Positions 2,217 to 19,180 of a stretch of DNA of 58,460 bases are shown piece after piece. The notes below the pieces were generated by a model. It did no database searches. It was not told the origin of the DNA and worked only from the letters and a program-made list of their open reading frames with translations. The DNA lies in the NCBI GenBank assembly GCA_964581285.1, contig CAZONT010000001.1, positions 1,450 through 59,909 of the forward strand, given 5' to 3'. The DNA comes from an uncultured Planctomycetaceae bacterium. GTDB taxonomy: Bacteria > Planctomycetota > Phycisphaerae > UBA1845 > UTPLA1. The stretch's first letter is position 1; every line of letters starts with the position of its first letter. Both the position numbers and the translations under genes were made by a program.

Positions 2217-3812
2217 TTGGTGACATACGTCGTCGAGGCGAATGAATTGGAGCGTCCGTTGGAGCAGCCGGCACTGCGACCGCTGCGTTACGCGTGGCTG
2301 GGTGTGGCGGTGCTGGCGGTGCTAATTCGCGCTCCGCTCGTCTTGCAGCCGGCGTGCATCGATCGCAATGGCGTGCAGTTTGTCGAGTTTGCGCGGCAGA
2401 TTGGCGACGGGCCGGTGAAGGCAATGCAGGAAACGCGACGGCAGCCGGGATTTGCGGCGTTGCTGCTGTTGACGCATAGACTGGTCGGCGGGGTCTTCGG
2501 TGGCGATACGCCCGAGGGGTGGCAGCGGTGTGGTGAGCTGCTTGCGCTGGTCGGCGGGGTTTGCGTTTGCCTCGGGTTGTACGCGCTCGCGGCGCGTTTG
2601 TTCGAGCCGGCGGTGGCGATAGCAGCGGGGGTTCTGGCGAGCTTGTGGCCGCAGGGGGCGGGGCTTTCGGCACAGGTGCTGTCGGACATGCCGCATCTGG
2701 CGTTGTATCTCGCGGCGCTGCTGGCAGCATATTCCGCACTGCGATCCGGCAGCGGCGTACGGCTTGGGCTTGCGGGGGTGCTCGTCGGCGCCTGCTACTT
2801 GGTGCGGCAGGAGGCGATCGGGCTGATTCTGGCGGCCGGGTTCTGCTGGCTCGGGTGGGCCGCCGGTCTGAATTGGCGCCGGCGATGCGTGGGACTGGCC
2901 ATGCTACTGGGCGGATTTGCGCTGGGCGCGGCGCCGCACTCTCTGATGATCGGGGAGTTGGTGCCGAACAAGAATCCGGCGGACTTTCTGAACTGGCTTA
3001 ACGAGGCCGCGACCAGGCCGGAGTCGCACCCGTTGATGCTGGCGTATTCGGCGACATGGTGGAAGACGCCGGGACAACTGGTCGAGTGGTGGGCGAAGAG
3101 CGGGCGCTATGCGATCGCGGGCTTGTTCGTGGTTGGCGTGTTTCTGAAGTCGGGGCCGCCGGCTGAGTCGCAGGGCCGCCGATTGGTGGTCGCGGCTGCG
3201 CTCGTTCATATCGCGCTCGTTGTGGTGCGGGCGGAAATCTACGGGGACACAAGCGACCGGTATGTTGTGATTCCGGCGGCGCTGGCGATTCCGTGGGCGG
3301 GTGCGGGCTGGGTGTACTTGATGCGATTCGCGCGGGAGCGCATCGCGGCGGAGGGCGTTCGACAGGTTGCGGTGGGGCTGGTAATGCTCGCACCGATCGT
3401 GCCGATGGTCGTGTACCTGGTGCGGCCGGTGTATGGCGGCAAGGAGGCGCTACGCGAGGCGGGGTGCTGGCTGCGCGAGCACGCGGACCGGCGGGATCGC
3501 GTTCTTGGGCACCGGAACCTCGAGCAGGTGATGTACTATGCGGACCGCGTCTATCCGCACGGCGCGTGGGTGAAGTGCGAACGGGCTGACGGCGTGAAGC
3601 GGCTTGCGGCGATCGTCGCGGCAAAACGACTGCGCTGGTACGTGGACGTCGAGGGATCGCATCGCGAGGAACTCGACGAGTCGGCGCATTTTTCGGCGCT
3701 GGAGTCGGGGGCGCTTGCGGGGGCTCGGGCGGTATTCTCGGCCGGCATGGCGGGGCGGCGCGTGATTGTCTTTGAGATCGAAGCGCCGGGCGGATCGGAA
3801 CGGGTGCGATGA
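2217..3812 (+). CDS. Polytopic GT-C-fold glycosyltransferase, ArnT/PMT-like (paralog A)
   Basis: 531 aa with many TM helices followed by a ~130-aa soluble C-terminal domain. Early loop motif CIDRNGVQFVEFAR. Clear paralog of 5090..6574 (shared VLSDMPHLALYLAA). TTG/GTG start. ATGA overlap with the next gene. Confidence 0.65.
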   Translation: MVTYVVEANELERPLEQPALRPLRYAWLGVAVLAVLIRAPLVLQPACIDRNGVQFVEFARQIGDGPVKAMQETRRQPGFAALLLLTHRLVGGVFGGDTPEGWQRCGELLALVGGVCVCLGLYALAARLFEPAVAIAAGVLASLWPQGAGLSAQVLSDMPHLALYLAALLAAYSALRSGSGVRLGLAGVLVGACYLVRQEAIGLILAAGFCWLGWAAGLNWRRRCVGLAMLLGGFALGAAPHSLMIGELVPNKNPADFLNWLNEAATRPESHPLMLAYSATWWKTPGQLVEWWAKSGRYAIAGLFVVGVFLKSGPPAESQGRRLVVAAALVHIALVVVRAEIYGDTSDRYVVIPAALAIPWAGAGWVYLMRFARERIAAEGVRQVAVGLVMLAPIVPMVVYLVRPVYGGKEALREAGCWLREHADRRDRVLGHRNLEQVMYYADRVYPHGAWVKCERADGVKRLAAIVAAKRLRWYVDVEGSHREELDESAHFSALESGALAGARAVFSAGMAGRRVIVFEIEAPGGSERVR

Positions 3813-5080
3813 AGAACCGCGGCCGGCGACTGCTCTGGATCGTGATCGGCTGCGGGTTGATGGCGTATGCCGTGGTCGATGTTGCGAAGTTCCAAGAGGC
3901 AATGCGGGAACGCAAACCGACGCTGAAGCGGTGGCTGCCGCAGGCGGCTGAAGCGGGGCAGGACGCGCGGCTATACGAGCGGCATCCGGATTACCTGTAT
4001 CCGCCTTTCTTTCTCGTTGTGTTGAAGCCATTGACGCGGGTCTCGCCGGCGACGGCGGCGGTCATCTGGCAGCTTGCGAAGTATGCGAGCATCGTCGCGA
4101 TCTTCGCGTCGGCGTGGGGCGTGCTCTTGCGGGCGGGGCCGGTGCCGGATTGGGTGAGACTGGCGACGATCATCGTCGCGTTTCGGTTTGTCCACTCCGA
4201 CCTGCGGCACGGGAATGTGAACCTGTTCATTGCGGCACTGGTGACCGGGGCGGCGTTGCTGTTTGTTACGAATCGTCGGTTCGCGGCGGGGGCGGCCGTG
4301 GGCCTGGCCGCGTGCATCAAGGTGACGCCGGCGCTGTGGCTGGCATACCTGGCGTACAAGCGGGAGTGGCGCGGGCTGCTGGGAGCCGCGGCAGCGATCG
4401 TCGTCGCGCTCGAACTCGTGCCGGGTGCGGTCATCGGCTGGTCGCTTAATCACGAATTGCTGCACGCGTGGTTTTCGCACTGCATTCGATCATTTGCGGA
4501 GGAAGGCCGGATTGACTCGGTGGGCATGAATCAGTCTCTGGCGGCGGTTACGAATCGGCTGTTCGGCTGGTCGGGACTGGCGGCCGACGAACATAGCGTC
4601 GTGCTCGTGCAATTGGCTGATGCGACGATTCGCTGGATTCAAAGCGGAGCGGCGATCGCGCTGCTTGGGGTTGCGGCATGGTCGTGCCGCGGTCGATTGG
4701 CGGTGCGTGAGTCGGCATTGGTGTTTGCGGTCGAATGGTCGTTGGTTGCACCCGTTACTTTGGCGTTGTCCGGGTACACTTGGACCGGGCATTTTTGTTT
4801 GCTTGTGCTTCCACTGACGACACTGTTTGCGTTCCTGGCATCATCACGGACCGATGGTGCGGCTGTCGCGCGGTGGGTCGTTCTGACCGGGACGATTGCT
4901 GCGTGCGGGATCTTCGTACTTGCCACTGACCTGCTGACGGCTCCGATCCGCGAGTGGGCGACGCAGATTGGATTGCCGCTACTGGGCGCGATGTGCGTGC
5001 TGGCCGCATTGGTGGCGGTTCGGGCTGCGCTGCGAGCCAACGAACGGGGCGATGGCGGGCGCGCGGCGTCATCGACATAA
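3809..5080 (+). CDS. GT87/DUF2029-family polyprenol-phosphate-sugar-dependent glycosyltransferase (PimE-like mannosyltransferase family)
   Basis: 423 aa, about 10 TM helices. Motifs ..DLRHGNVNLFIAALV.. and ..ACIKVTPALWLAYLAYK.. are typical of DUF2029/GT87. Confidence 0.7.
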   Translation: MKNRGRRLLWIVIGCGLMAYAVVDVAKFQEAMRERKPTLKRWLPQAAEAGQDARLYERHPDYLYPPFFLVVLKPLTRVSPATAAVIWQLAKYASIVAIFASAWGVLLRAGPVPDWVRLATIIVAFRFVHSDLRHGNVNLFIAALVTGAALLFVTNRRFAAGAAVGLAACIKVTPALWLAYLAYKREWRGLLGAAAAIVVALELVPGAVIGWSLNHELLHAWFSHCIRSFAEEGRIDSVGMNQSLAAVTNRLFGWSGLAADEHSVVLVQLADATIRWIQSGAAIALLGVAAWSCRGRLAVRESALVFAVEWSLVAPVTLALSGYTWTGHFCLLVLPLTTLFAFLASSRTDGAAVARWVVLTGTIAACGIFVLATDLLTAPIREWATQIGLPLLGAMCVLAALVAVRAALRANERGDGGRAASST

Positions 5081-5089
5081 TCGCGAGCC

Positions 5090-6574
5090 ATGAACGGCAA
5101 CGGACACACCGGCCCGCCAGCGAGCGTCTCGACCTCGGTTCGCACCGGCGGCTGGCTGATGCTGATTCTCGTCATCGCGGCGGGACTGCGAATCATGCAG
5201 GCGGCACGGCTGGAGTGCATCAGCCGCGATGGTGCGTTTTTCGTGCGGTTCGCGCGGGAGCTGGCGATCGATCCGCGGTTGTACATGCGGGAGGAGAGCA
5301 AGCAGCCGGGGTATTCGTTCGCATTGCTGTGGATGGAGCGATCGGTCGGGTGGCTGTTGTCGGGGGATACGGTGCTGGCATGGGAGCGGAGCGGGCAGCT
5401 CGTCGCGCTGGCCGCCGGGATTGCGGTCGTGCCGCTGGTGTACCTGCTCGGGCGGCGAGTGTTCGATGCGCGGATCGGGTTGATCGCGGCGGGGCTGGCG
5501 GCCGTCTGGTCGCAGGCGGTTGATCTGTCGGCCGATGTGTTGTCGGACATGCCGCATCTGGCGCTGTACCTGGCGGCGATGCTCGCAGTTTTGGCGCTGC
5601 TGAAGTCGGGGCGGCTGGCGTGGGCTTTGCTGGCGGGAGTCTGCGCCGGCGCGGCTTACCTGTTTCGGCTGGAGGCGCTGGGATTGCCGATTGCGTCGAC
5701 GGCCGTGCTGTATTGGAAGCCGGGGGCGGCGCGGCGACAGCGCGTCGTTGCTTCGATCGTTCTTCTGGTGAGTTTCGGAGCGACGGTTGCGCCGTACGTG
5801 GCCGTAACCGGGACGCTGACGCACAAGAAGAGCATTCCGCAACTCCTGGAGTCGCCGGCGGAGGCGGCGGCAATGGGACGCGAGTTGGAAGTTGCGGGCG
5901 AGGCGGTCAAATCGTTTCTCGAATGCGGGCGGTATGTGCTGCCGGGGCTTGCGATCGCCGGCGTCTTGATGGGCGCGGGGGCGGCGCGACGCGACGCGAG
6001 AGACTACGTCATCGTGCTGGCGGCGCTTCACGTGGCGGCGGTGTACCTGCGCGGACGGAGCTTTGGAGAGATCAGCACGCGGTACATGATCGTGCCGGTG
6101 GCGCTGAGTCTGCCGTGGGCGGCGCTGGGCGTGTTGGAAATCGGACGGCGGGTGCTTGCGCATTATGTACTTCGAATGGTGACGGGAGCGGCGCTTGTCA
6201 TCCTGTTGATTGGTCCGCTGCGGCATGCGCCGCAGCACGGAAAGCTTCCGCAGCGGATCGCGGGCGAGTGGATTCGGTCGAACGCGGCGACCGATGCGCG
6301 GATTCTGGTTGCGCCGAAGCTGTCGGCGGTGGCGTTTTACGCCGATCGGCGCGATGTCTGGCCCGCGTCAACGGCTGAACATCCGGCCGCCCGGCTTGCA
6401 AGCATCGATGCGGCGTCGCCAGCGTGGTTCGTCGATCAACCGGAGCGGCCGGAGGGCGACGATGAGAACGGGCTGCTGCTGGGGCTGTGCCGCGCGCGGG
6501 TCGGCGGCGGCGTGCCGAGTTTTGAGGATGGCAAGGATCGCGAGCGCGTGGCGGTGTCTGCGTGGCGGAAGTGA
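5090..6574 (+). CDS. Polytopic GT-C-fold glycosyltransferase, ArnT/PMT-like (paralog B)
   Basis: 494 aa with the same architecture as 2217..3812. Shared motifs ISRDGAFFVRFAR and DVLSDMPHLALYLAAML, including a 21-nt identical stretch tcggacatgccgcatctggcg. Confidence 0.65.
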   Translation: MNGNGHTGPPASVSTSVRTGGWLMLILVIAAGLRIMQAARLECISRDGAFFVRFARELAIDPRLYMREESKQPGYSFALLWMERSVGWLLSGDTVLAWERSGQLVALAAGIAVVPLVYLLGRRVFDARIGLIAAGLAAVWSQAVDLSADVLSDMPHLALYLAAMLAVLALLKSGRLAWALLAGVCAGAAYLFRLEALGLPIASTAVLYWKPGAARRQRVVASIVLLVSFGATVAPYVAVTGTLTHKKSIPQLLESPAEAAAMGRELEVAGEAVKSFLECGRYVLPGLAIAGVLMGAGAARRDARDYVIVLAALHVAAVYLRGRSFGEISTRYMIVPVALSLPWAALGVLEIGRRVLAHYVLRMVTGAALVILLIGPLRHAPQHGKLPQRIAGEWIRSNAATDARILVAPKLSAVAFYADRRDVWPASTAEHPAARLASIDAASPAWFVDQPERPEGDDENGLLLGLCRARVGGGVPSFEDGKDRERVAVSAWRK

Positions 6575-7111
6575 TCAGCCGTCGCGGCGGGTCCAGACGT
6601 AGGGGATGTCGTTGTCGTGCGGGTCGGCCCGGAATTCGTCGGGCGACTTGTAGTTGTAACACTCGGTCGTCACGTTTACGACCATGCACTCGCAGTCGGA
6701 GACGCACATCCAGCCGTGATAGACGCCGGGGGGGATGCGAACCAGTCCGGGAACGTGTTCGGAGAGGTAAACCTCGTTGACCTCGCCGCGGGTCGGCGAT
6801 TGCTCGCGGCCGTCGTAGAGGCCGATCTTGATTGCGCCGCGAACGCAGTAGAAGTGGTCGGTCTGGAGGCGATGGAAATGCCATGCCTTGACGATGCCGG
6901 GATAGGTGGTCGTGAAATAGACCTGGCCGAACTTCTGGAACCAGGGGTCGTCGGCGCGCATGATTTCGCCGAGTCGTCCGCGCTCGTCGGGGAGCACGCG
7001 GGCGCGCCTGACGGCAACGCCGTCAATGAGCCCCTTGCGGCCACGGACCATGAGTGATTCGTCTGCGAAAACGACCTTGAGCGTTGGCAGCGTTCCTTTG
7101 TCCAGCGGCAT
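6575..7111 (-). CDS. dTDP-4-dehydrorhamnose 3,5-epimerase-like cupin (RmlC-related)
   Basis: 178 aa from the ATG at 7111. ..DERGRLGEIMR..VKAWHFHRLQTDHFYCVRGAIKIGLYDGREQSPTRGEV..IPPGVYHGWMCV.. follows the RmlC-family pattern. The upstream part of the 271-aa track ORF is Arg-rich and was rejected. Confidence 0.7.
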   Translation of the reverse strand: MPLDKGTLPTLKVVFADESLMVRGRKGLIDGVAVRRARVLPDERGRLGEIMRADDPWFQKFGQVYFTTTYPGIVKAWHFHRLQTDHFYCVRGAIKIGLYDGREQSPTRGEVNEVYLSEHVPGLVRIPPGVYHGWMCVSDCECMVVNVTTECYNYKSPDEFRADPHDNDIPYVWTRRDG

Positions 7112-7375
7112 GGGTTGAGGACTCCGCGAAGAAGCGATTATCAGCGAATATGGGCCCGCGACATTACGAAGTTGCGCGTGTTGCGTCAACGCGCGCGAGC
7201 TTGACATGCCCCGGCGACGGTCGGAAAATGGGGTTTTCCTCTTCGCACCGTGCGGCGCCCGGCACGCGAAATCAACCGACCCGCGTTGAGCTTCCTCCCT
7301 GCGGGCATCGCCGGGGAGATCACCGCCAGGGCGAATCGGCAGCGTTCCCGACACATTCGCTGATACGGGTCGGAC

Positions 7376-9823
7376 ATGAAGTTGGATCACATCGAGCGAA
7401 AACCTGACGCGTCCACCATCGACTCGCTGAAGGCCGGCAGGTCAGGGTCCGTTGCGAAGACCGAGAGTCGTTCGGTGCGCGAAATTGATGCGCTGCCGAC
7501 CGTCGACGTCATGATTGTCTGCTACAACTCGGAGCGCTGGCTCGACGGGTTCGTGGATGGGCTGTCGCGGCTGAATTACCCGGCCGATCGGCTGCGGCTT
7601 GTATGCATCGACAACGGCTCGAAGGACCGAACCGTCGAGCGGCTGCGGGCGGCGGCGTCGAAACTTCCGTTCGGAGCCGAGATTGTCGCCGGGGAGCAAA
7701 ATCGCGGGTTCGCCGGCGGGTATGGCGAAGCGTTCCGGCGGGGGGCAGCGGAATACTACTTCGTCGTCAACGTAGACACGGTCGTTGAGTCGGATGCGGT
7801 GCGGCGGTTGATTGCGGCGCTGAAGTCGGATGCGACCATCGGGATCGCCGAGGCGAAGCAGGCGCCGAACGAGCATCCGAAGTACTACGACCCGATCACC
7901 GGCGAGACGAGCTGGTGCAGCGGCGCGTGCATGATGGTCCGGGCCGAAGCGCTGCGGCAGGTGGGGGGATTCTACGAGCCATTTTTCATGTACGCGGAGG
8001 ATGTCGACCTCTCGTGGAGGATGTGGCTGCACGGCTGGCGGTGCGTCTATGTGCCGGATGCGGTGGTGCAACATTTCACGGAAGAACTCGATCCGGGCCG
8101 GAATCCGCAATGGCAGCATTACTTCAGCATGCGGAACGGCGCGCTGATGCGCGTGATGTACGGAAGCCCGGCGGACATTCTCGTTCACTTCGCGGCGATG
8201 TTGCGGATCTCGATACTGTCGCGCGCGCCAATGTGGCATCGCCGGCTCGTGCTGAAGGCAATTGTGGGGTCGCTGCGGCGACTGACGAAGGCGTGGAAGG
8301 AACGGCGAAGCCGGGCGGCGCGCGGTGGGCATCCGTGGGTTTTCTTCAACGGCTGGCTGTACGGCCGACATGCGCGCGATTTGTCGCTCAAACACGATAC
8401 AACGGACCTCTTCGGCGCGCTGGGCACGGCCGAGCGAACGATCGACCGGCCCGTTTCGACGACGGACCACATCGTCGCGCGGGAGCGGGTCCGTGTCGGG
8501 AGAATCGACCGCCGGGCGATCCAGATGTTTGACACGGCGGAGGTTGTGTTCCACGTCGATGTCCCGTCGCCGACGGACCTGTGCGGCGCATTTGCGGCAC
8601 CGGAGGATGCGTGGAAGCCCGATTCGGCCGCGGTCTTCACCGTGCGACAGGATGACGAGGTCATCTGTCGCGAAGAGTTGCAACCGCGTCGGGACCGGGC
8701 GCCGGGCTGGCGGCCGTTTCAGGTTGGGTTGAGTCGATCACGACAGGGTCGGCCTTCGCGGATTTCGCTTCGGTTCGAGCAGATCCACGAACTCGAGTGG
8801 GGCCTGATCGGCGACTTGCGTTTGAAACACCGCGCGTCACCCATGACACCGGAGACGGCCGGCGGAGCGGGACGCGATACGCCGCGGGTGTCGATCGTCA
8901 TACCGACGCACAATCGATGCGACCGGGTCGGGCGCGTGATACGCCGGATCATGACCCAGGAGGCGCCGCGCGAGTTGTACGAAGTGATCGTGGTCGACAG
9001 CAATTCGTCGGACGATACGCCGGCCGTCCTGCGGCGGCTCGAGGCGGAGTATGACTCGCTCAAGGCCCGGCGGTGCGAGCGACCGGGCGCGGCGGCGGCA
9101 CGGAATCTTGGACTCACGGAAGCGCGCGGGGAGCTGATCATCCTGCTGGATGATGACATCCTCGTGGGGTCGGACTTCCTGCGGAAGTACCTCGCGGCGT
9201 ATCGGTGGAACGGCAATCGGGTGCTGCTCGGCCAGATCGTCGCGCCCTGGGAGGACAGCGTCGATCCGTTTCATCGCTATCTCATGCAGGCGCAGGACGT
9301 CAATCGGTACGACTTCGCGGACCCGTCCGACGTGCCTGCGAGTTACTTCTACACGGCGTGCGTGGGCATTCCCCGGGCGGCGCTACGCGGGCTTCGGTTT
9401 GACGACAGCTTCATGGTATATGGCGTCGAGGACATTGAGTTCGGCTACCGGCTGCTGAGGGACGGCGTGCGGATGACCTACGTGCCGGAGATCGAGGTCT
9501 GGCATGAGTACTATCCGCACTACAGCGGCTTTCGGTCGAAGAAGTACAAGGCCGGGTATTCGCTCGGGTATTTCCTGGAGCAGCACCCCGGGCTGGCGAC
9601 GCAGTTCACGTTCGAGCGACGGGTTCGATGGTTCGCGACGATCGTGCGGGCGACTCAGTGGCTTCTGTCGCCGCTGGCGGGTCTGTCGTACCTGCTTGAA
9701 CGGATTCGCTATCGCAGCGGGCCGGTCGGACGGCTGCTTTACCGGTGGATGTATTTTGACCTGCGGTTGCGGATGTACGCCGGCATGCGCCGGTTTCGGC
9801 GTGGAGCGACACCGCCCCTCTGA
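7376..9823 (+). CDS. Bifunctional glycosyltransferase with two GT2 domains (N-terminal rhamnosyltransferase-like GT2, central linker domain, C-terminal GT2)
   Basis: 815 aa. Domain 1: VDVMIVCYNSERWL..IDNGSKD..NRGFAGG..FFMYAEDVDLSWR. Domain 2: VSIVIPTHNRCDR..VVDSNSSDDT..ILLDDD..VEDIEFGYR. Confidence 0.8.
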   Translation: MKLDHIERKPDASTIDSLKAGRSGSVAKTESRSVREIDALPTVDVMIVCYNSERWLDGFVDGLSRLNYPADRLRLVCIDNGSKDRTVERLRAAASKLPFGAEIVAGEQNRGFAGGYGEAFRRGAAEYYFVVNVDTVVESDAVRRLIAALKSDATIGIAEAKQAPNEHPKYYDPITGETSWCSGACMMVRAEALRQVGGFYEPFFMYAEDVDLSWRMWLHGWRCVYVPDAVVQHFTEELDPGRNPQWQHYFSMRNGALMRVMYGSPADILVHFAAMLRISILSRAPMWHRRLVLKAIVGSLRRLTKAWKERRSRAARGGHPWVFFNGWLYGRHARDLSLKHDTTDLFGALGTAERTIDRPVSTTDHIVARERVRVGRIDRRAIQMFDTAEVVFHVDVPSPTDLCGAFAAPEDAWKPDSAAVFTVRQDDEVICREELQPRRDRAPGWRPFQVGLSRSRQGRPSRISLRFEQIHELEWGLIGDLRLKHRASPMTPETAGGAGRDTPRVSIVIPTHNRCDRVGRVIRRIMTQEAPRELYEVIVVDSNSSDDTPAVLRRLEAEYDSLKARRCERPGAAAARNLGLTEARGELIILLDDDILVGSDFLRKYLAAYRWNGNRVLLGQIVAPWEDSVDPFHRYLMQAQDVNRYDFADPSDVPASYFYTACVGIPRAALRGLRFDDSFMVYGVEDIEFGYRLLRDGVRMTYVPEIEVWHEYYPHYSGFRSKKYKAGYSLGYFLEQHPGLATQFTFERRVRWFATIVRATQWLLSPLAGLSYLLERIRYRSGPVGRLLYRWMYFDLRLRMYAGMRRFRRGATPPL

Positions 9824-9828
9824 AAGCC

Positions 9829-10425
9829 ATGAACGAACCGGCCGTACCACAAACTGCGTCCGCTACACCTGAACGGCGCGACCCTCGTGCGACCGCGCTG
9901 GATGTTTTTTACGGCGCAGCGGTGCTGGTGCTGTGTATTTGCATCTGGCAGGCGAGTCGGCCGAGCTGGTTTCCGCCGTCGTATCGACAGGAGAGCCGGC
10001 CGCTGCTGACGGCGGTCCAGGAACTGCGCGACGGGCTCGATTCCAATTCGCGGGTATGGATCGTCTGCCAGGACGACGAGGAGCATGATTTGAACTGGCG
10101 GCGGATTGCCTACGGGTTGATTCCGCGGCGCGTACTGTATCTTCCGCGAAACATCCGGCCGCCAGACGAGGTGTCGCCGCGCGTCGTCGACCCGGAGCAG
10201 GGCTCGCGCGGATCGCTCCACAGTGATTCGATCGCGTTCAGCGATGCCGAGAATCTTCGACGGTACTTGCGAAACATGCAGGTCACGCACATGGTTGTTG
10301 TGAACGACGATCCGACGTTTGCGACACTCACCGGCTTCGATCGTCCCGCCGGTCGCATGTACCTTGTGCGGTTCGATCCAGTCACGGGTCAACTTGCGGA
10401 GCTACGAAGTGTCCCGCGACCTTGA
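9829..10425 (+). CDS. Hypothetical membrane-anchored protein (one N-terminal TM, ~140-aa extracytoplasmic domain)
   Basis: 198-aa ORF 5 nt after the previous stop. TM helix VFYGAAVLVLCICIW. High GC3. No family recognised. Confidence 0.5.
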   Translation: MNEPAVPQTASATPERRDPRATALDVFYGAAVLVLCICIWQASRPSWFPPSYRQESRPLLTAVQELRDGLDSNSRVWIVCQDDEEHDLNWRRIAYGLIPRRVLYLPRNIRPPDEVSPRVVDPEQGSRGSLHSDSIAFSDAENLRRYLRNMQVTHMVVVNDDPTFATLTGFDRPAGRMYLVRFDPVTGQLAELRSVPRP

Positions 10426-10465
10426 GGCATTTCGTACGTTCCTCGCATCTCCTGCGGCGGCCGTC

Positions 10466-11926
10466 ATGGGGGTCGTGGTGGGGGAGATCGTCGTTTACTT
10501 TCTGGCGGGGCGGGTGGTGGCCGCGCTGTTGACGCGTCGGGGTCGCGCGTTGGGGCGGGATTGGTACACCGCCGCTTACGTCGCGGTCGGTGGGTTGGCA
10601 GTGAACTTCGTTGCGTTCCTGGTGCTGTTTGCGGGGGTTCATTCGCTGCGAGGCGCTTACCTGATCGCGCTGCTGCCATTCGTGGCGGCGGCGATTTTTC
10701 GGCGGCGCGAGGTGTTCAACTTTCGGGTCGGATGGGCGCTGCTTGTTCTGGTGCTGATGGTTTTCGCGTTTCGCGTTCCCGGAGCGACGCTGTTGCAGGC
10801 CGAGCCGCAGATGTGGGACGAGTTCACGCATTGGGCCGGGCGTGCGCGGCAGATACTGCTGCTGGACCGGCTGCCGGTGGCGGGTGAGCCGCTTTCGGGG
10901 GTCGCGCCGCACTATGGATTATTTGCGACGATGCTGGCTGTGGGCTCCTACGTGCCATTCGGCCGCGAGGTTGTCGGGGCCGGGATCGCCTGGAGCCTGA
11001 TCTTTTCGATTCTGATGGCCGTTCACAGCTATGAGTTCCTGCGGCGGCACGGTGTTTCGCGGCTCTTTGCGGGGCCGGCGTGCACGTGGTTTCTGGCGTG
11101 GCTGATGCGCGGCCAGAGTTTGCTGTCGACGAGCATGTACGCGGATATTTTTGTCGCGGTCGGAGGCACGCTGGCAGTCCTGCACCTGTGCGACTTCGGG
11201 CTGCCGCCGGCGGGGGAGGCGCGGCGGGCGGAGGACGGACTGCTGGCGGCATGCGGGCTTGGGATTCTCGTGTTTACGAAGACGACGGGCGATGTGATCG
11301 CAGCGGGAGCGATTGGTTATGCCGGCGCGGCCGTGGTGATCGGCGCGATTTGGAGACGTTCGCCGCGCGCGATTCCGGCCGGGTGGCTGGCGATCATGCT
11401 GGCAGTCGTTCCGGCGGTTGGCATTCGCGCGGCGTGGATGGGATATGGCCATTTACACAATCCAACGGCGGAGCAGTTGCTGCTGGAACGGGGCGGGCGG
11501 GCCACGGATGTCATTCACGCTCCCGAGGTTCCGTGGGCGAAGATGATTGGCATCACGTTTGACGGCATCGCGCACGAGGAGCCGTACTCGGTGCTGCTGG
11601 CGGCGTTGCCGGGCTGCATTCTGCTGGATTTCTTCCTGCGCGCGGCGAGCGGCCGGCGACCGCGATCGGCGCGGCTGAGCATGCTGGTCGGCTGGATGCC
11701 GCTGGTCGTGGTCATGTTTGCGATTGTGCTGAATGTGACGTTCGGGCCGTCGCGCGCAAATCTGGACGGCGGGCGGTATCTGGCGGCGGTGCTGCCGGTG
11801 CTGTTGTGTTACCTGGTGTCGGTCGGTGCGCGCTTTGCTGAGTGGGCCGTTTCCTTCGATAGCGGCGTTCTGTACACTCGGGATGCGGCGACGAGCCCGG
11901 TCGATTCGGGGCCGAAGACCGCCTGA
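10466..11926 (+). CDS. Polytopic membrane protein, possible unclassified GT-C-type glycosyltransferase/polymerase
   Basis: 486 aa from the first ATG after the upstream stop, with at least 10 hydrophobic helices. Acidic loop motif PQMWDEFTHWAGRAR after early helices is reminiscent of the GT-C DE loop. Function uncertain. Confidence 0.5.
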   Translation: MGVVVGEIVVYFLAGRVVAALLTRRGRALGRDWYTAAYVAVGGLAVNFVAFLVLFAGVHSLRGAYLIALLPFVAAAIFRRREVFNFRVGWALLVLVLMVFAFRVPGATLLQAEPQMWDEFTHWAGRARQILLLDRLPVAGEPLSGVAPHYGLFATMLAVGSYVPFGREVVGAGIAWSLIFSILMAVHSYEFLRRHGVSRLFAGPACTWFLAWLMRGQSLLSTSMYADIFVAVGGTLAVLHLCDFGLPPAGEARRAEDGLLAACGLGILVFTKTTGDVIAAGAIGYAGAAVVIGAIWRRSPRAIPAGWLAIMLAVVPAVGIRAAWMGYGHLHNPTAEQLLLERGGRATDVIHAPEVPWAKMIGITFDGIAHEEPYSVLLAALPGCILLDFFLRAASGRRPRSARLSMLVGWMPLVVVMFAIVLNVTFGPSRANLDGGRYLAAVLPVLLCYLVSVGARFAEWAVSFDSGVLYTRDAATSPVDSGPKTA

Positions 11927-12008
11927 TTTCAACCCTTCTGAGTCGAACTGGTTTGCCAGGCCCGTGCTCGAATCGCGATCCACGAGAGAGTCAGCCCCGA
12001 CAATCCGC

Positions 12009-13178
12009 GTGCCGCGGCGGGTGGCCGTGTTCACGGGGCATTTTTATCCGCATGTGGGCGGCGTCGAGCGATTCAGTCTTGAGCTGTGGCGGCGGATGGC
12101 GGCGCGCGGCTGGGACGTGCGACTGCTGACGAGCAACACGCATGGGGCGGCGGCGTCGGAGCGGGTTGAGGGGATCCACGTCGTTCGATTGCCGGTGTTC
12201 AAGGTAGTGAGCAACCGACTGCCGGTGTTGCTGCCGTCGCGAGCGCTGTGGCGGGCGGTTCGAGAATTGCGCGAATGGTCGCCAGACGTGATCGTCACGA
12301 ACACGCGGTTTTTCAGCACGAGCGTGCTGGGGGTCGCGCTTGCGGAGCGATGGAACGTGCCGTGCCTGCACATCGATCACGGGTCGGATCACATTCGAGT
12401 CGGATCGCCGGTTGCCAATCGCGTGGCGGAGATGATCGATCACTCGATCGGGAGCTGGGTCGTACGGCGGGCGACGCGGTGTGTAGGCGTTTCGGGGGCT
12501 GTCGCGCGATTCGTCGAACATCTCGGGCGTTCGGGGGCGGGCGTTCTGTATAACGGCGTCGATACGGCAGCGTTCTCGCCGGGGGACACAGCGGGCCGCG
12601 AGCGGCTGGGCTTGTCCCGCGACGATTTCCTGGTGCTGTTCGTCGGGCGACTCATCGAGGACAAGGGCGTGATGCATCTGCTCGATGCAATGGATCGGCT
12701 GAATGGGGCGACGCGGGCGCAACTCGTGGTTGCCGGGGACGGTCCACTCATGCCGGCCATCCGGGCGCGGACGGCGGGGCGGGCGAACGTGCACCTGCTG
12801 GGATTTGTGTCGCCGCAGGAGGTGGGTCGGCTGATGTGCGCGTGCGACGTGTTTGTGCACCCGTCGAACTATCCGGAGGGATTGCCGACTTCGATTCTTG
12901 AAGCGGGGGCGGCGGGTGCAGCGATCGTGGCGACGCCGATGGGGGGAACGGAGGAGATCGTGCCGACACCGGCACATGGGCTGATTGTGCCGCCGGCGGA
13001 TCCGCCGCGGCTGGCCGAGGCGATTTCGCGGTTGGAGCGGGACCGGGCATTGCGGGCTTCGCTCGGGCGGACAGTCCGCGAGCATGTGCAAAGGACGTTT
13101 GACTGGGAACGCATCGCCGACGCGGCGGAGGCGGAGTTGAACGCGCTGATCCCGTCGGCGGCAGAGGTTCGCCGATGA
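12009..13178 (+). CDS. GT4-family (GT-B fold, Glycos_transf_1) glycosyltransferase
   Basis: ..RVAVFTGHFYPHVGGVERF.. N-terminus and ..FVHPSNYPEGLPTSILEAGAAGAAIVAT.. EX7E-type C-terminal motif. GTG at 12009 chosen, since the longer track ORF overlaps the upstream gene. Confidence 0.8.
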   Translation: MPRRVAVFTGHFYPHVGGVERFSLELWRRMAARGWDVRLLTSNTHGAAASERVEGIHVVRLPVFKVVSNRLPVLLPSRALWRAVRELREWSPDVIVTNTRFFSTSVLGVALAERWNVPCLHIDHGSDHIRVGSPVANRVAEMIDHSIGSWVVRRATRCVGVSGAVARFVEHLGRSGAGVLYNGVDTAAFSPGDTAGRERLGLSRDDFLVLFVGRLIEDKGVMHLLDAMDRLNGATRAQLVVAGDGPLMPAIRARTAGRANVHLLGFVSPQEVGRLMCACDVFVHPSNYPEGLPTSILEAGAAGAAIVATPMGGTEEIVPTPAHGLIVPPADPPRLAEAISRLERDRALRASLGRTVREHVQRTFDWERIADAAEAELNALIPSAAEVRR

Positions 13179-14203
13179 GCAGGGTTTACCGCGTGGCGAT
13201 CATCGGGGCCGGCAACATTACGAGCTTGCGGCACATTCCGGCACTGCGCGGAAGCGGGCGGACGGAAATTGTGGGTGTGGTCGATCGGCACGAGGATCGC
13301 GCGCGGCGTGTGGCGGAACGCTTTCGGTTGCCGCATTTTGGGACCGACATTGCTGCGGGCTGGATGAACGACGTGGAGGCGGTGTCGGTTGGCGTGCCGC
13401 CGTTTGCGCATGCGGCGGTGGCGTCGGCGTTGCTTGGGGCGGGAAAGCATGTGTTGCTTGAGAAGCCGATGGCGCTGACGGTCGACGAGGCGGAGGGGCT
13501 GGTGCGACTGGCGAAAGCAAACAGTCGCATCCTCGCGCTGGTGCACAATTTTCAGTTCGCGCGATCGGCGATCAAGCTCGAGCAACTGATCCGGGACGGG
13601 AAACTGGGTGATGTCCGTGGAATCCTCTGTTTCCAACTCAGCACGACGGAACGCCGGCTGCCGGTATGGGCTGAGGAGCTGCCGCTCGGACTATTTTACG
13701 ACGAAGCGCCGCATCTGCTGTACCTATTGCGGGCGTTTGGAGGCGATGTCAGCGTTCGGTCGGTCTCGGCGACGCCGTCTCTGATCGGGCGTACGACGCC
13801 GGCCGTGATCACGGCGCATCTGTCGGCCGGTTCCGTCCCGGCTGTGCTCTACAACAATTTCGAGGCGCCGGTTTCGGAGTGGCACTTCGCGGTGCTGGGC
13901 ACAAAGCAGATGGGCGTCGTCGACGTGTTTCGCGACGTGCTGGTGCGGCTGCCGAACGACAACCAGCATCTTGCGATGGATGTCATGCGGACGTCGGTCG
14001 CGGGAATTCGCACGCACCTGGCAGGCGTTTTCACGTCGGGCCTGGCGATGCTTCGTGGCAAGCTGCTGTATGGGAACGATGAGGTCGTCCGGCGGTTTCT
14101 CGACGCGATCGAGACGGGGCGGGCGCCGGCCGATATCTCCGCCGAGGACGGACTGGCCGTGCTGCGGTTGCAACACGAGATCGTCCGGCTCGCGGGCCGT
14201 TGA
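13175..14203 (+). CDS. Gfo/Idh/MocA-family NAD(P)-dependent sugar oxidoreductase
   Basis: Rossmann N-terminus YRVAIIGAGNITSLRHIPAL and ..VLLEKPMALTVDEAEGL.. motif. ATGA overlap with the GT4 stop. Confidence 0.85.
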   Translation: MSRVYRVAIIGAGNITSLRHIPALRGSGRTEIVGVVDRHEDRARRVAERFRLPHFGTDIAAGWMNDVEAVSVGVPPFAHAAVASALLGAGKHVLLEKPMALTVDEAEGLVRLAKANSRILALVHNFQFARSAIKLEQLIRDGKLGDVRGILCFQLSTTERRLPVWAEELPLGLFYDEAPHLLYLLRAFGGDVSVRSVSATPSLIGRTTPAVITAHLSAGSVPAVLYNNFEAPVSEWHFAVLGTKQMGVVDVFRDVLVRLPNDNQHLAMDVMRTSVAGIRTHLAGVFTSGLAMLRGKLLYGNDEVVRRFLDAIETGRAPADISAEDGLAVLRLQHEIVRLAGR

Positions 14204-14261
14204 TGCGGCGGGTGAGGGGCGTGTTGCATCGGTGTGGTCGGGAAAGTCTAATGATTTGCTG

Positions 14262-14942
14262 ATGCAGCGAATCGCGTACGTCATTCCGGCATTTAATGAG
14301 GGGCGCGTCATTGGCGACGTGGTCGCCACGCTGCGGCGCGAGGCGCCGGCGGGGCTCGTGATCGTTGTTGACGACGCGTCGAACGATGGAACGCGCGAGG
14401 CGGCTGGTGCGGCGGGGGCGATTGTGCTGCGGCATACGATCAATCGCGGGCAGGGGGCGGCGCTGCAGACGGGGTTCGACGCGGCGATCCGGCTGGGAGC
14501 GGATGTCGTTATTACATTCGATGCAGACGGGCAGCACCGGGCGGACAACGTCCGGCGATTACTCGACGCGCTCGAGACATCCGGGGCGGATGTGGCGCTC
14601 GGCTCGCGGTTTCGGGGCGAGGAATCGGAGATGCCGGCCGGGCGGAAGACGCTTCTGAAGTTCGGTTTGCTTTTTACGCGCGTCGTTTCGCGGATTCGTG
14701 TGAGCGATACGCATAATGGGCTGCGGGCGTTTCGTGCATCGGCGCTGGCGAAGATTCGGATCAGTGAGGATCGCATGGCGCATGCTTCGGAGCTGCTCGA
14801 TTTGATTGCGGCAGGTGGGCTCAAGTACGTCGAAGTGCCGTGCTCGATTCGGTATACCGACTACAGCATGCAGAAGGGGCAGCGGTGGACCGGCGCGCCG
14901 CGGATTGTGTTTGACTTCCTGCTCGGGAAGTTGTTCCGATGA
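14262..14942 (+). CDS. GT2 polyprenol-phosphate glycosyltransferase (GtrB/ArnC/Ppm1-like)
   Basis: 226 aa from the ATG at 14262. ..IAYVIPAFNEGRVIG..VVDDASNDGT..INRGQGAALQTG..ITFDADGQH... The upstream part of the track ORF overlaps the oxidoreductase and is Arg-rich. Confidence 0.8.
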   Translation: MQRIAYVIPAFNEGRVIGDVVATLRREAPAGLVIVVDDASNDGTREAAGAAGAIVLRHTINRGQGAALQTGFDAAIRLGADVVITFDADGQHRADNVRRLLDALETSGADVALGSRFRGEESEMPAGRKTLLKFGLLFTRVVSRIRVSDTHNGLRAFRASALAKIRISEDRMAHASELLDLIAAGGLKYVEVPCSIRYTDYSMQKGQRWTGAPRIVFDFLLGKLFR

Positions 14943-15346
14943 ACCATTCGCCAGGCCCGGGAATCACGTTATTCCAGATCGTCACGATTGGCGTGCTCGT
15001 CGTGCTCGTGGCGTACAGTCTGCGGGCGTGGCTGGTGCTCGGACGGCGGCGGATGGCGCTTGCCTGTCTGCTCTTTCTGAGCGCCGGCATCGCCATCGCG
15101 TTTCCGAAAACGACGCAATTCATTGCCAATCGGCTTGGAATCGATCGCGGCGCTGACCTCGTCGCGTACATGACGACGTTTGCCGCGATCGGGTGCTACT
15201 TTTTGACGCTCTACAGCCATCGCCGGCTGAGGATGCAGATTACGGAATTAACGAGGCAGCTTGCGCTTTCGCAGCTTCCGCCGCGCGAATCGCTGCCACC
15301 GGAGTGGCGTCAGACGGCCGCTGTGGCGGCCGATGAGTCGCGATAG
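14939..15346 (+). CDS. DUF2304-family small membrane protein
   Basis: 135 aa, 4 TM helices. ..IAIAFPKTTQFIANRLGIDRGADLVAYMTTF.. matches the DUF2304 core (GxxRGADL). ATGA overlap with the GT2 stop. 3' end overlaps wzt convergently by 37 nt. Confidence 0.65.
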   Translation: MNHSPGPGITLFQIVTIGVLVVLVAYSLRAWLVLGRRRMALACLLFLSAGIAIAFPKTTQFIANRLGIDRGADLVAYMTTFAAIGCYFLTLYSHRRLRMQITELTRQLALSQLPPRESLPPEWRQTAAVAADESR

Positions 15347-16071
15347 GCGGGGACGATCTCGCTCGGCTCGCCATCCATCGCCACGACACCGCCTTTGATC
15401 CATACGCAGCGATTGCAGTATTCCTCGATCAGCGCCATCTGGTGCGAGACGAGGACGACGATGCGCGAACGGTTGAGCAGGGCCCGCATCCGGGCACGGG
15501 CCTTTTCGACCCAGTGGATATCGCCGACGCTGAAGACTTCATCGAGCAGAAGAATCTCCGGGTCGATTTCGGTGGCGACGCTGAACGCGAGGCGCTGCTG
15601 CATGCCGGAGGAGTAATACTTCACGGGGGTGTCGGCGAATTCGTGCAGTTCGGCGAAGTCGAAGATCGGGCCGACCTTGCGGATCATCTCGCGCTTGGGG
15701 AAGCCCATGATGGCGCCGGTCAGGAAGATGTTTTCGCGGCCGCTGAGTTCACCGTTGAAGCCGATGCCGACCTCAAGCAGCGGGACGAGGAAGCCGTGGC
15801 GACGGACGCGGCCGGACGTGGGGGGGTAAATGCGCGAGATGACCTTGAGCATCGATGACTTGCCGGCGCCGTTGTCGCCGATGAGGCCGACGCGCTGGCC
15901 GGGGGTGATGTTGAGACTGACGTTTCTGAGGGCGGTCACTTCGGTGTAGGGCTTGGCGTAGCGGCGGCGGGCGAGGGCGTTGACGACGGCCTCCTTGATC
16001 GAGCGACCGCGCGTGGAATAGACGCGAAACCGAAGTGTGACATCCTCAACGGCGATGAAGTTCTCGGGCAT
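15310..16071 (-). CDS. wzt: Polysaccharide ABC exporter ATP-binding protein (Wzt/TagH/KpsT type, short form without C-terminal carbohydrate-binding domain)
   Basis: Walker A GDNGAGKSS, signature YSSGMQQRL, Walker B ILLLDE. 253 aa. Confidence 0.85.
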   Translation of the reverse strand: MPENFIAVEDVTLRFRVYSTRGRSIKEAVVNALARRRYAKPYTEVTALRNVSLNITPGQRVGLIGDNGAGKSSMLKVISRIYPPTSGRVRRHGFLVPLLEVGIGFNGELSGRENIFLTGAIMGFPKREMIRKVGPIFDFAELHEFADTPVKYYSSGMQQRLAFSVATEIDPEILLLDEVFSVGDIHWVEKARARMRALLNRSRIVVLVSHQMALIEEYCNRCVWIKGGVVAMDGEPSEIVPAYRDSSAATAAV

Positions 16072-16079
16072 GGGTGGTA

Positions 16080-16862
16080 TCAGAGCGCGAAGATCAGCTC
16101 GTCCTCATTCCGCCAGAAGACCGTCAGACCGAACGCGAGGACGACGAGCGACGTTACCACGGCGGTCGCCAGTTCCGACGGCGTGGGGAGCGTGCCGTGG
16201 TAGATCGGCCGATGGAACATCTCGATGATGCTGAACATGGGGTTGATCTTAAAGAAGTAAACGTACTTGTGGGGCATCTGGTCCAGCGGATAAATGACGG
16301 GCGTCAGATAGAACCAGGCGCTCAGGAAGACCGAAATCAGGTGCTGCATGTCGCGGAAATAGACCGTGACTTTGGCAGCCAACGCTCCCAGCCCGACAGC
16401 CATGCTTACGACGCACAGGAAGGACAACGGCAGGATCGCGAGGGCCGGCGTGAGTTTCAGGCCGACGATGGGGCCGACTGTGAGGAGCAGGACGAATAAG
16501 GACAGGACAAAGGTGATCAGATTCTGGAGAACGAAACTGATCGGGAAGATCAACTTCGGGAAGTATTGACGCCGGAGCATTGTCTCGGCGTTGACGATGG
16601 ACATGGCACAGCCGTCGATGGACGAGGCGAAGAAGCTCCACGGCAGGACGCCGGAGAGAACGTAGAGGGGGAACCGACCGGTTGCCGGAAACAGGAGCGA
16701 GAAGACCGCGCTGATAACCAGCATTTGCAGGAGTGGGTTCAGCAGGGACCAGAAGAAACCCAGCGCGGATCGGCGGTATTTGACCTTGAGATCCTGCGCG
16801 ACGAAGTTCTTGATGACTTCGCGGAACTGCCAGAGTTCGCTGATTCGGCCGACCGGCCCCAT
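16080..16862 (-). CDS. wzm: Polysaccharide ABC exporter permease (ABC-2 type, Wzm)
   Basis: ..LWQFREVIKNFVAQDLKVKYRRSALGFFWSLLNPLL.. ABC-2 N-terminal motif plus 6 TM helices. ATG at 16862 preferred over the in-frame TTG at 16892. Stop lies 8 nt before the wzt start. Confidence 0.85.
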   Translation of the reverse strand: MGPVGRISELWQFREVIKNFVAQDLKVKYRRSALGFFWSLLNPLLQMLVISAVFSLLFPATGRFPLYVLSGVLPWSFFASSIDGCAMSIVNAETMLRRQYFPKLIFPISFVLQNLITFVLSLFVLLLTVGPIVGLKLTPALAILPLSFLCVVSMAVGLGALAAKVTVYFRDMQHLISVFLSAWFYLTPVIYPLDQMPHKYVYFFKINPMFSIIEMFHRPIYHGTLPTPSELATAVVTSLVVLAFGLTVFWRNEDELIFAL

Positions 16863-17044
16863 GGAGTGTCTTCGCGAAACGTCGGCGGACAAGCTCAGCC
16901 ACGCGGCGAAGCTCGGCCGGTCATGCGAGTATCGAGACAGCGCCGCGAAGCGTCAAGACGTGGGGCGGACTTCGATCGATGTCGGGCGGCGTCGGCGGGC
17001 GTTAAGCTACTGCGCAGCTCGGGGGGCTACGAACGGAGTAACAG

Positions 17045-17197
17045 ATGGATACGCTTCTGACGGTGGTCAACGCGATCTGTGAGGGGACGTCCGAGGCGGT
17101 CGGCGCGATTCCCGTCTATGGGCCGATCTTTTCGCAGTATGTCCAGTGGTTGTGTTTCTTCCTGCTGTCATTCCTCGGCGCGAATGCGCAAGTCTGA
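17045..17197 (+). CDS. Candidate 50-aa small hydrophobic protein (not in ORF track)
   Basis: ATG preceded by GGAG at -10..-7. MDTLLTVVNAICEGTSEAVGAIPVYGPIFSQYVQWLCFFLLSFLGANAQV. GC3 high like neighbouring genes. It fits the gap between wzm and the RluA-like gene. Confidence 0.35.
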   Translation: MDTLLTVVNAICEGTSEAVGAIPVYGPIFSQYVQWLCFFLLSFLGANAQV

Positions 17198-19070: not shown

Positions 19071-19180
19071 GCAGCCATCGTATACCAATCGAGGGGCTGT
19101 TTCACTGAATCACGCTTCGTCGTATGGTATCGGCCGCGGCCCGACCGATGGCGTTGCGGGCCGTGACGGAAGAGACGCGG

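Follow-up and report, generated by a model that had tools for sequence, protein, structure and literature searches.

The DNA analysed here, called the window throughout, is a 58,460-nucleotide stretch from an uncultured Planctomycetaceae bacterium assigned to the Phycisphaerae (assembly GCA_964581285.1, contig CAZONT010000001.1, positions 1,450 to 59,909). It has a G+C content of about 64%, and among its products are DUF1570 and an ECF (extracytoplasmic function) sigma factor of the planctomycete type, both of them marker families of the Planctomycetota. Near one end lies a predicted envelope-glycan locus of thirteen genes, which combines an exporter of the ABC (ATP-binding cassette) type, putative cytoplasmic glycosyltransferases and sugar-tailoring enzymes, and four polytopic proteins of the GT-C type (Table 1). 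All thirteen genes listed in a preliminary description of this DNA are present at the place and with the families that it gave, with support from Pfam, and some of their boundaries have been corrected.

Table 1. Genes of the predicted envelope-glycan locus, with their coordinates in the window
Product	Coordinates	Strand	Basis of assignment
GT-C(A), PMT_2-family polytopic glycosyltransferase	2217..3812	+	PMT_2 40.5 bits, cut-off 26.1
GT87-family polytopic glycosyltransferase	3809..5080	+	PF09594 103.5 bits
GT-C(B), second PMT_2-family enzyme	5090..6574	+	PMT_2 48.9 bits
Stand-alone RmlC-like cupin, 178 aa	6575..7111	-	dTDP_sugar_isom 50.9 bits
Two-domain GT2, 815 aa	7376..9823	+	two GT2 stretches, ~30-250 and ~500-720
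Single-pass anchored protein, 198 aa	9829..10425	+	one transmembrane helix, no family
Orphan polytopic protein, 505 aa	10409..11926	+	no sequence family; GT-C fold by structure comparison (predicted model)
GT4	12009..13178	+	Glycos_transf_1 112 bits, Glyco_transf_4 82 bits
GFO/IDH/MocA NAD-dependent sugar oxidoreductase	13175..14203	+	PF01408 97 bits
PpgS/GacI-like GT2, 226 aa	14262..14942	+	Glycos_transf_2; PpgS profile NF058614
DUF2304 small membrane protein (GacJ/Rv3632 family)	14939..15346	+	PF10066 43.9 bits
wzt, ATP-binding subunit, 253 aa	15310..16071	-	ABC_tran (PF00005) 74 bits
wzm, ABC-2 permease	16080..16862	-	ABC2_membrane (PF01061) 62 bits

Pfam gathering thresholds were used, and the family assignments reported here exceed them. 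Homologues served to correct the gene boundaries that deviated from the longest open reading frames (ORFs), namely those of the cupin, the 226-aa GT2 and the polytopic gene, whose GTG start at 10409 was set in this way. The start of GT-C(A) could be placed only within 2217-2304, and that of the GT4 gene is ambiguous between ATG 11883 and GTG 12009. Several ATGA overlaps had been described between start and stop codons, and three can be read directly: 3809-3812 (GT-C(A)/GT87), 13175-13178 (GT4/oxidoreductase) and 14939-14942 (GT2/DUF2304). Moreover, the stop of the 198-aa gene and the start of the polytopic gene overlap by 17 nt, wzm and wzt are adjacent with a gap of 8 nt, and the convergent DUF2304 and wzt genes overlap by 37 nt. 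Since twelve of the thirteen genes are syntenic at 76-99% amino acid identity in L003, a locus from a Planctomycetota metagenome-assembled genome (MAG; comparison loci are numbered with the prefix L), we consider them to be real genes rather than chance ORFs.

The four polytopic proteins had been described as GT-C enzymes, a claim staked on profile or structure comparison, and both kinds of comparison bear it out. GT-C(A), with about nine hydrophobic segments, and GT-C(B) are PMT_2 paralogues of about 35% identity, the third protein has a strong GT87 match, and the fourth is placed by structure comparison. The PMT_2 family takes in protein and lipid A glycosyltransferases, and the characterised members of GT87 are mannosyltransferases dependent on polyprenyl-phosphate-mannose. 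The GT87 protein matched the NCBIfam model PRK13375 at 55.7 bits, against a cut-off of 413, and its homologues carry names from Phycisphaerae MAGs; searches of PDB sequences with GT87 and GT-C(B) gave no match. The gene that stands before GT87 encodes a product with 50% and 44% identity to GT-C(A) in L010 and L011, respectively, whereas GT-C(B) reaches only 35% with this single PMT_2 gene of either locus, and no separate GT-C(B) orthologue was seen in L010 or L011. Conversely, GT-C(B) is 79% identical to an L003 gene to which GT-C(A) aligns at 35%. By these identities the PMT_2 gene found ahead of GT87 in other Phycisphaerae has its orthologue in GT-C(A) and not in GT-C(B). At 3232-3344 of L003 the flavin reductase gene is followed by about 110 nt and then by GT87, GT-C(A) being cleanly gone. 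Its absence there and its presence in L010 and L011 point to a recent loss, or to presence/absence variation between strains.

The fourth polytopic protein had no sequence match in Pfam, NCBIfam or PDB. Its homologues form six clusters among 5.8 billion, and an exhaustive HMMER search of 1.84 billion cluster representatives returned four matches below 1e-30 and ten below 1e-3; one weak-scoring relative bears a PMT_2 domain. A first AlphaFold model, from six sequences, had a predicted local distance difference test (pLDDT) score of 51 and was discarded as unusable. The AlphaFold2 model from a 13-sequence alignment is all-helical and reached a pLDDT of 84.2 and a predicted template modelling score (pTM) of 0.88. 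When it was compared with the PDB by Foldseek, 14 of the 15 top matches were chains of GT-C enzymes, 13 of them at a probability of 0.97-1.00. These matches included ArnT (E=7e-4, TM-score 0.48), AftA, EmbB, EmbC, Pmt1/Pmt2, AglB, ALG3 and AftB, and a chain of the O-antigen ligase WaaL stood at rank 9 (TM-score 0.22, probability 0.69). We conclude from this model that the orphan protein has a GT-C fold, the TM-scores being moderate. The predicted topology comprises 13 transmembrane helices without the periplasmic domain usual in GT-C enzymes. Three motifs, WDEFTHW, MYAD and FTKTTGD, are invariant and fall on periplasmic loops by the positive-inside rule; D137, within the first, is conserved in all 13 aligned relatives and belongs to the loop spanning residues 129-188, which is predicted to be periplasmic.

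It could be argued that the likeness to GT-C enzymes is a generic resemblance between multi-helix proteins and that the orphan protein is a transporter or a flippase, for example the missing lipid-sugar flippase. The TM-scores are indeed below 0.5 with a high root-mean-square deviation, no sequence profile links the protein to GT-C(A) or GT-C(B) (hhalign of its profile against GT-C(B) was negative), and no flippase gene was found in the locus. Nevertheless, we hold this explanation to be very improbable: transporters appeared among the Foldseek matches only at probabilities of 0.2 or less, far from those of the GT-C chains, a distant sequence relative has a PMT_2 match, and the invariant acidic and aromatic motifs lie on predicted outer loops, as they do in GT-C active sites. 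Distant relatives of 629-644 aa that share the WDEFTHW motif were found in L006 (9796-13458) and L004 (9650-12501). One setting is a Lachnospiraceae MAG, with a methyltransferase and a GT2-GtrA fusion as neighbours; the other is a Rhodospirillales MAG, with a GT2 and LptF/G. A GT2-GtrA fusion or a GT2 in this position fits the use of a lipid-phosphate-sugar donor by the polytopic protein.

The orphan gene is always preceded by the same kind of neighbour. In all six loci with the polytopic gene (the window, L003, L001, L002, L008 and L009), a single-pass protein of 183-203 aa is encoded directly upstream, with the same 17-nt overlap. By this arrangement the 198-aa protein, which had no sequence match in Pfam, NCBIfam or PDB, is predicted to be an obligate partner of the polytopic protein. 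In the window, L003 and L009 the gene of the 815-aa GT2 immediately precedes the pair, and in L001 it belongs to the same cluster; in L002 and L008 the pair is not accompanied by a two-domain GT2. A YfhO-like large membrane protein of 612-1141 aa accompanies the pair in L001 (11500-13380, minus strand), L008 (2818-4656) and L002 (5981-9406), of which only the L002 protein reached the Pfam threshold for YfhO, at 54 bits.

The association with the two-domain GT2, a candidate polymerase, in four of the six loci could suggest for the pair the role of the missing ligase, or of an en-bloc transferase, of the WaaL or oligosaccharyltransferase kind, which would move the exported polyprenyl-diphosphate-linked chain to its final acceptor. 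The presence of WaaL and of the oligosaccharyltransferase AglB among the structural matches would agree with such a role, as would the lack of a ligase among the window ORFs scanned with Pfam (the larger ones, about 50 in all, a scope that applies to every absence given below). However, the best structural matches, ArnT, AftA and the Emb proteins, use polyprenyl-monophosphate sugars, and WaaL itself matched poorly, as described above. Moreover, the distant relatives adjoin GtrB-type GT2 genes, and the pair does without the GT2 polymerase in L002 and L008. A ligase function therefore seems quite unlikely to us.

What the small partner contributes may be read from the distant relatives of the polytopic protein. 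Those that form a single chain have 624-682 aa and carry a soluble C-terminal tail of 130-190 residues past the last helix. With hhalign, the small protein and these tails aligned in the expected regions, weakly (E=0.034, probability 1.5%); hmmsearch was not significant. In shuffle-controlled Smith-Waterman comparisons, a few of 30 pairs reached z=3-5.6 with collinear alignments. The 198-aa protein may thus be a detached periplasmic domain of the polytopic protein, although these alignments are faint. Its likeness to the C-terminal domains of the PMT_2 enzymes of the window was also considered and found to be unsupported, hhalign of the 198-aa profile being negative against GT-C(A) and GT-C(B). 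We tentatively suggest that the pair could represent an undescribed and very rare GT-C family, whose periplasmic acceptor-binding domain would be split off into a translationally coupled, anchored upstream subunit and would be fused at the C-terminus in the distant relatives of about 630 aa. In this tentative suggestion the pair would also be a mobile module entering an O-antigen-like, hypervariable Phycisphaerae locus, whose flanks are conserved and whose centre can be exchanged. If this is true, the orphan candidate would add both a family and a split architecture to the catalogue of GT-C enzymes.

Outer-face enzymes of this type call for lipid-linked sugars, and a GT2 of the GtrB/Ppm1 kind beside a DUF2304 protein had been put forward in the preliminary description as their source. 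The 226-aa GT2, in which no transmembrane helix was detected, matched NF058614, the profile of PpgS (Rv3631), at 188.6 bits over the full 226 positions, which is below the equivalog cut-off of 370. It is a candidate polyprenyl-phosphate-sugar synthase. Its gene is followed immediately, through an ATGA overlap, by that of the DUF2304 protein, and a GT2 without transmembrane helices coupled in this way to a DUF2304 protein is what defines the pairs GacI/GacJ and PpgS/Rv3632. The DUF2304 members GacJ and Rv3632 bind to GacI and PpgS and stimulate them (10.1101/180810). By analogy, the DUF2304 protein of the window is a predicted activator or anchor of the 226-aa GT2, and at the level of sequence and gene order the two make a clear member of this documented type of synthase/activator pair.

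Two further glycosyltransferases, the two-domain GT2 and the GT4, showed no transmembrane segment. The former has homologues of 52% identity in L009 and L001 and is the candidate polymerase of the exported chain; the latter is 91% identical in L003. The best NCBIfam match of the oxidoreductase was UDP-GlcNAc 3-dehydrogenase, with 83 bits against a cut-off of 450. The cupin is both RmlC-like and WbuC/CapF-C-like and is predicted to be a protein of the sugar-nucleotide epimerase/isomerase type. It accompanies wzm-wzt in L014, and its identity is 94% in L003, 85% in L010 and 79% in L014; it is among the best-conserved proteins of the locus and ranks first in the comparison with L010 and L014, where GT87 or Wzm reach 55-72%. 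The cupin was also considered as a sign of rhamnose. Against the RmlC equivalog TIGR01221 it scored 34 bits (cut-off 155.75), and rmlA, rmlB and rmlD were not found among the scanned window ORFs. As it is not an RmlC equivalog and the rmlABD genes are absent from the window, the inference of rhamnose was dropped.

The adjacent permease and ATPase genes, together with cytoplasmic GT2 and GT4 enzymes in the same locus, are the features of an ABC-dependent pathway. ABC_tran, at residues 48-180, is the sole domain detected in Wzt, and its 253 aa are too few to accommodate a C-terminal carbohydrate-binding domain as well; the preliminary description had already observed that this domain is absent. 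The best NCBIfam matches of Wzt were galactan Wzt/RfbE (212.5 bits, cut-off 400) and then TagH (162 bits), and those of Wzm were galactan Wzm (63.3 bits, cut-off 380) and KpsM (58 bits). Wzm has 974 homologues at E<=1e-20; the best 120 of them are mostly 43-78% identical, and most of those with a named source come from Phycisphaerae MAGs. The marks of the O9a subtype are lacking, since Wzt has no carbohydrate-binding domain and the locus has no kinase/methyltransferase terminator of the WbdD kind. A Wzt without a carbohydrate-binding domain goes with terminator-free export, as in the Klebsiella O2a mode, and a 253-aa Wzt without a terminator is consistent with this coupled mode.

We then compared the locus with its homologues in other genomes. 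L003 holds the whole locus except GT-C(A), at 76-99% identity. L010 and L013 are parts of a single contig of GCA_015654675.1, whose left flank (macB, flavin reductase, GT-C(A), GT87, cupin) and right flank (wzt, wzm, a pseudouridine synthase gene, mreC, glmU, mltA) are as in the window. Its centre differs: it has other GT4-type enzymes, a methyltransferase, a DUF362 protein, an FAD oxidoreductase and, next to wzt, two polytopic proteins, one of them with a PMT_2 match below threshold. L015 is arranged in the same way. L014 (GCA_020639075.1) carries the cupin, wzm and wzt, and after them a protein whose CBM60-like match is weak and below threshold, a methyltransferase and a PMT_2-like protein of 743 aa. 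Large polytopic proteins of 578, 632 and 743 aa stand directly beside wzt in L013 (11634-15285), L015 (11634-15264) and L014 (14740-16971), and two of them have sub-threshold PMT_2 matches of 22-23 bits. One wzt-adjacent polytopic protein has a CBM-like C-terminus in common with a neighbouring single-pass protein of 657 aa.

By this comparison of gene orders, the locus occupies a fixed chromosomal slot, from macB/flavin reductase to pseudouridine synthase/mreC/glmU/mltA, and it appears modular: as in O-antigen loci, the flanks are conserved and the centre can be replaced. In other Phycisphaerae the exporter genes recur next to predicted polytopic proteins of the PMT_2-like kind and to this cupin. 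The co-conservation that had been expected therefore holds for wzm-wzt, PMT_2-like proteins and cupin, but it is modular and does not extend to thirteen genes: GT-C(A) is missing in L003, the centre is replaced in L010/L013 and L015, and in L011 the exporter does not lie near the GT-C(A)-GT87 pair.

The reading proposed in the preliminary description, in which a polymer is built inside the cell, exported and then decorated outside, is still the best one, and we give it a probability of about 0.55. It is not established for all four GT-C enzymes. The family or fold of each protein, the couplings between genes and the modular conservation are established here; the donors, the order of the steps and an acceptor shared by the four GT-C enzymes are what we infer. 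Several observations weigh against the reading. The full set of genes is conserved only in the close relative L003, where GT-C(A) is missing, and the identity there is so high that this conservation says little about function. In L011, macB is accompanied by GT-C(A) and GT87, yet wzm-wzt does not occur within 10 kb, and L012 has GT87 alone; another acceptor may therefore be the target of GT-C(A) and GT87. The top six Foldseek matches of the orphan protein reach TM-scores of only 0.36-0.48. None of the NCBIfam scores at equivalog level reaches its cut-off, and donor sugars are therefore not assignable. Finally, the scanned window ORFs include no initiating phosphoglycosyltransferase (WecA/WbaP), no O-antigen ligase (WaaL-type) and no lipid-sugar flippase (GtrA, SMR, MATE or Wzx). 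The absences already pointed out for this DNA thus hold in the window, but as anomalies they were rejected, being ordinary for such loci. WecA-type initiating transferases and WaaL-type ligases are commonly encoded elsewhere in the genome. Since WecA/WbaP often lies elsewhere, its absence from the window is compatible with an ABC-dependent pathway.

The distribution of GT-C(A) and GT87 in L011 and L012 speaks for another explanation, according to which the region holds at least two independent neighbouring pathways. GT-C(A) and GT87, perhaps with GT-C(B), would modify a separate housekeeping acceptor, and only the central genes and wzm-wzt would make an exported polymer; protein O-mannosylation, a lipomannan-like glycolipid and the decoration of lipid A or peptidoglycan would be the candidates for the separate activity. 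In line with this, L014 has wzm-wzt and the cupin without GT87, GT-C(A) is dispensable in the closest relative, L003, and PMT_2 enzymes include glycosyltransferases of proteins and lipid A. On the other hand, in three genomes with a GT87 identity of 64-87% (window, L003 and L010/L013) one and the same slot is enclosed by the GT-C(A)-GT87 pair and by wzm-wzt, and PMT_2-like proteins repeatedly adjoin wzm-wzt. Moreover, the flank available in L011 is 10 kb, and wzm-wzt may lie elsewhere in that genome. We consider two separate pathways to be rather unlikely.

Under the preferred reading of build inside, export and decorate outside, the following scenario can be proposed. A polyprenyl-diphosphate-linked primer would be supplied by a phosphoglycosyltransferase encoded outside the window, and the chain would be extended in the cytoplasm by the GT4 and the two-domain GT2, with the cupin and the GFO/IDH/MocA oxidoreductase tailoring a nucleotide sugar. 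The growing chain would be exported by Wzm-Wzt. Because Wzt lacks a carbohydrate-binding domain, export would be coupled to synthesis and a terminator would not be needed, as in the Klebsiella O2a mode. In parallel, the GT2 without transmembrane helices, held and activated by the DUF2304 protein, would load a sugar, possibly an N-acetylhexosamine, onto polyprenyl phosphate. A flippase would turn the lipid-linked sugar over, and a synthase whose gene lies elsewhere would supply mannose donors. The candidates for periplasmic transfer onto the exported polymer would then be the two PMT_2 paralogues, the GT87 enzyme and the orphan GT-C-fold protein with its 198-aa partner.

Some features of the window stand apart from this scenario. 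The GC skew is positive (0.05-0.23) across positions 1-36000 regardless of gene strand and is then about zero. The high G+C content yields long spurious antisense ORFs; in the ORF at 1642-2739, for example, the flavin reductase accounts for no more than the final 160 codons or so. A 50-codon ORF at 17045-17197 (plus strand), which lies between wzm and the pseudouridine synthase gene, would encode the hydrophobic peptide MDTLLTVVNAICEG...FFLLSFLGANAQV. An alternative-type GlmU is encoded at 19124-20413 (plus strand), 2 kb from the locus and beside mreC and mltA (TIGR03991, 365 bits, above the cut-off), and this GlmU/mreC/mltA arrangement is kept in L003, L013 and L015. Further away, a 686-aa protein at 53742-55802 (minus strand) combines an animal-haem-peroxidase domain (513 bits) with a C-terminal SdrD_B-like domain, which is an unusual combination in bacteria.

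The envelope glycans of the Planctomycetota, and of the Phycisphaerae in particular, are almost uncharacterised, and our literature search found no paper describing such a locus. The conserved slot in the chromosome, in which an exporter is combined with a candidate pair for lipid-sugar synthesis and with several predicted transferases of the outer face, offers a testable map, and its variable centre suggests a serotype-like surface diversity in the Phycisphaerae.

Among known systems, mycobacterial arabinogalactan assembly is the one to which the preliminary description had likened the locus. Its parts include the Wzm-Wzt exporter Rv3781/Rv3783, PpgS (Rv3631) with Rv3632, and the GT-C enzymes AftA-D, Emb and Rv3779, and the GT87 enzymes PimE and Rv2181 serve the mannans. 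The likeness is real in so far as the best NCBIfam matches of wzt, wzm, the 226-aa GT2 and GT87 are mycobacterial (galactan Wzt and Wzm, PpgS and a PimE-like protein), several GT-C enzymes would act on an ABC-exported polymer, and the synthase has a DUF2304 partner. It does not go as far as equivalence, since all four scores are far below the equivalog cut-offs (212.5/400 for wzt, 63.3/380 for wzm, 188.6/370 for GT2 and 55.7/413 for GT87). In addition, genes of the GlfT, DprE or UbiA type are missing from the locus, its host is a diderm member of the Planctomycetota, and the putative polymerase is a two-domain GT2.

The contrast that had been drawn with Gram-negative O-antigen loci was overstated, because ABC-dependent O-antigens decorated by GT-C enzymes have been published, namely those of Klebsiella O2 (gmlABC) and Citrobacter youngae O1/O2 (GT136) (PMC11127046). 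The locus resembles these three-component systems in encoding, all in one diderm locus, Wzm-Wzt for the predicted export of a chain made in the cytoplasm, a candidate GT2 lipid-phosphate-sugar synthase and GT-C enzymes that would act after export. It differs in having four GT-C-type genes of three sequence families instead of one, and in its Planctomycetota host. As for the three components, a GT-C transferase is present, a flippase gene (GtrA, SMR or MATE) is lacking, and the candidate synthase is of the PpgS/GacI type without transmembrane helices and with a DUF2304 partner (PpgS match of 188.6 bits, below the cut-off of 370), whereas it is GtrB in the published systems. In the streptococcal system of GacI, GacJ, GacK and GacL with the RgpC/D exporter, a GT2 without transmembrane helices and a DUF2304 protein make a lipid-linked sugar, which a GT-C enzyme adds to an ABC-exported polymer (10.1101/180810), much as is predicted here. 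In contrast to it, the present locus has no GacK-type flippase and no rhamnan genes (rmlABD, RgpA/B/F), and it has multiple GT-C enzymes. The overall logic is therefore already published in enterobacteria, streptococci and mycobacteria, and no new principle is involved.

The closest solved structures to the orphan protein are ArnT (GT83) and AftA (GT85), with TM-scores of 0.45-0.48. Its model shares with them the multi-helix GT-C fold, and it has a conserved acidic residue that is predicted to lie, as in these enzymes, in a long loop on the outer side with juxtamembrane helices. Unlike them, it has no periplasmic C-terminal domain and is paired with the predicted obligate single-pass partner encoded upstream, and its sequence has no detectable similarity to theirs. 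Potentially, then, the new element of the locus is this rare two-gene GT-C family only, and the remainder matches known systems.

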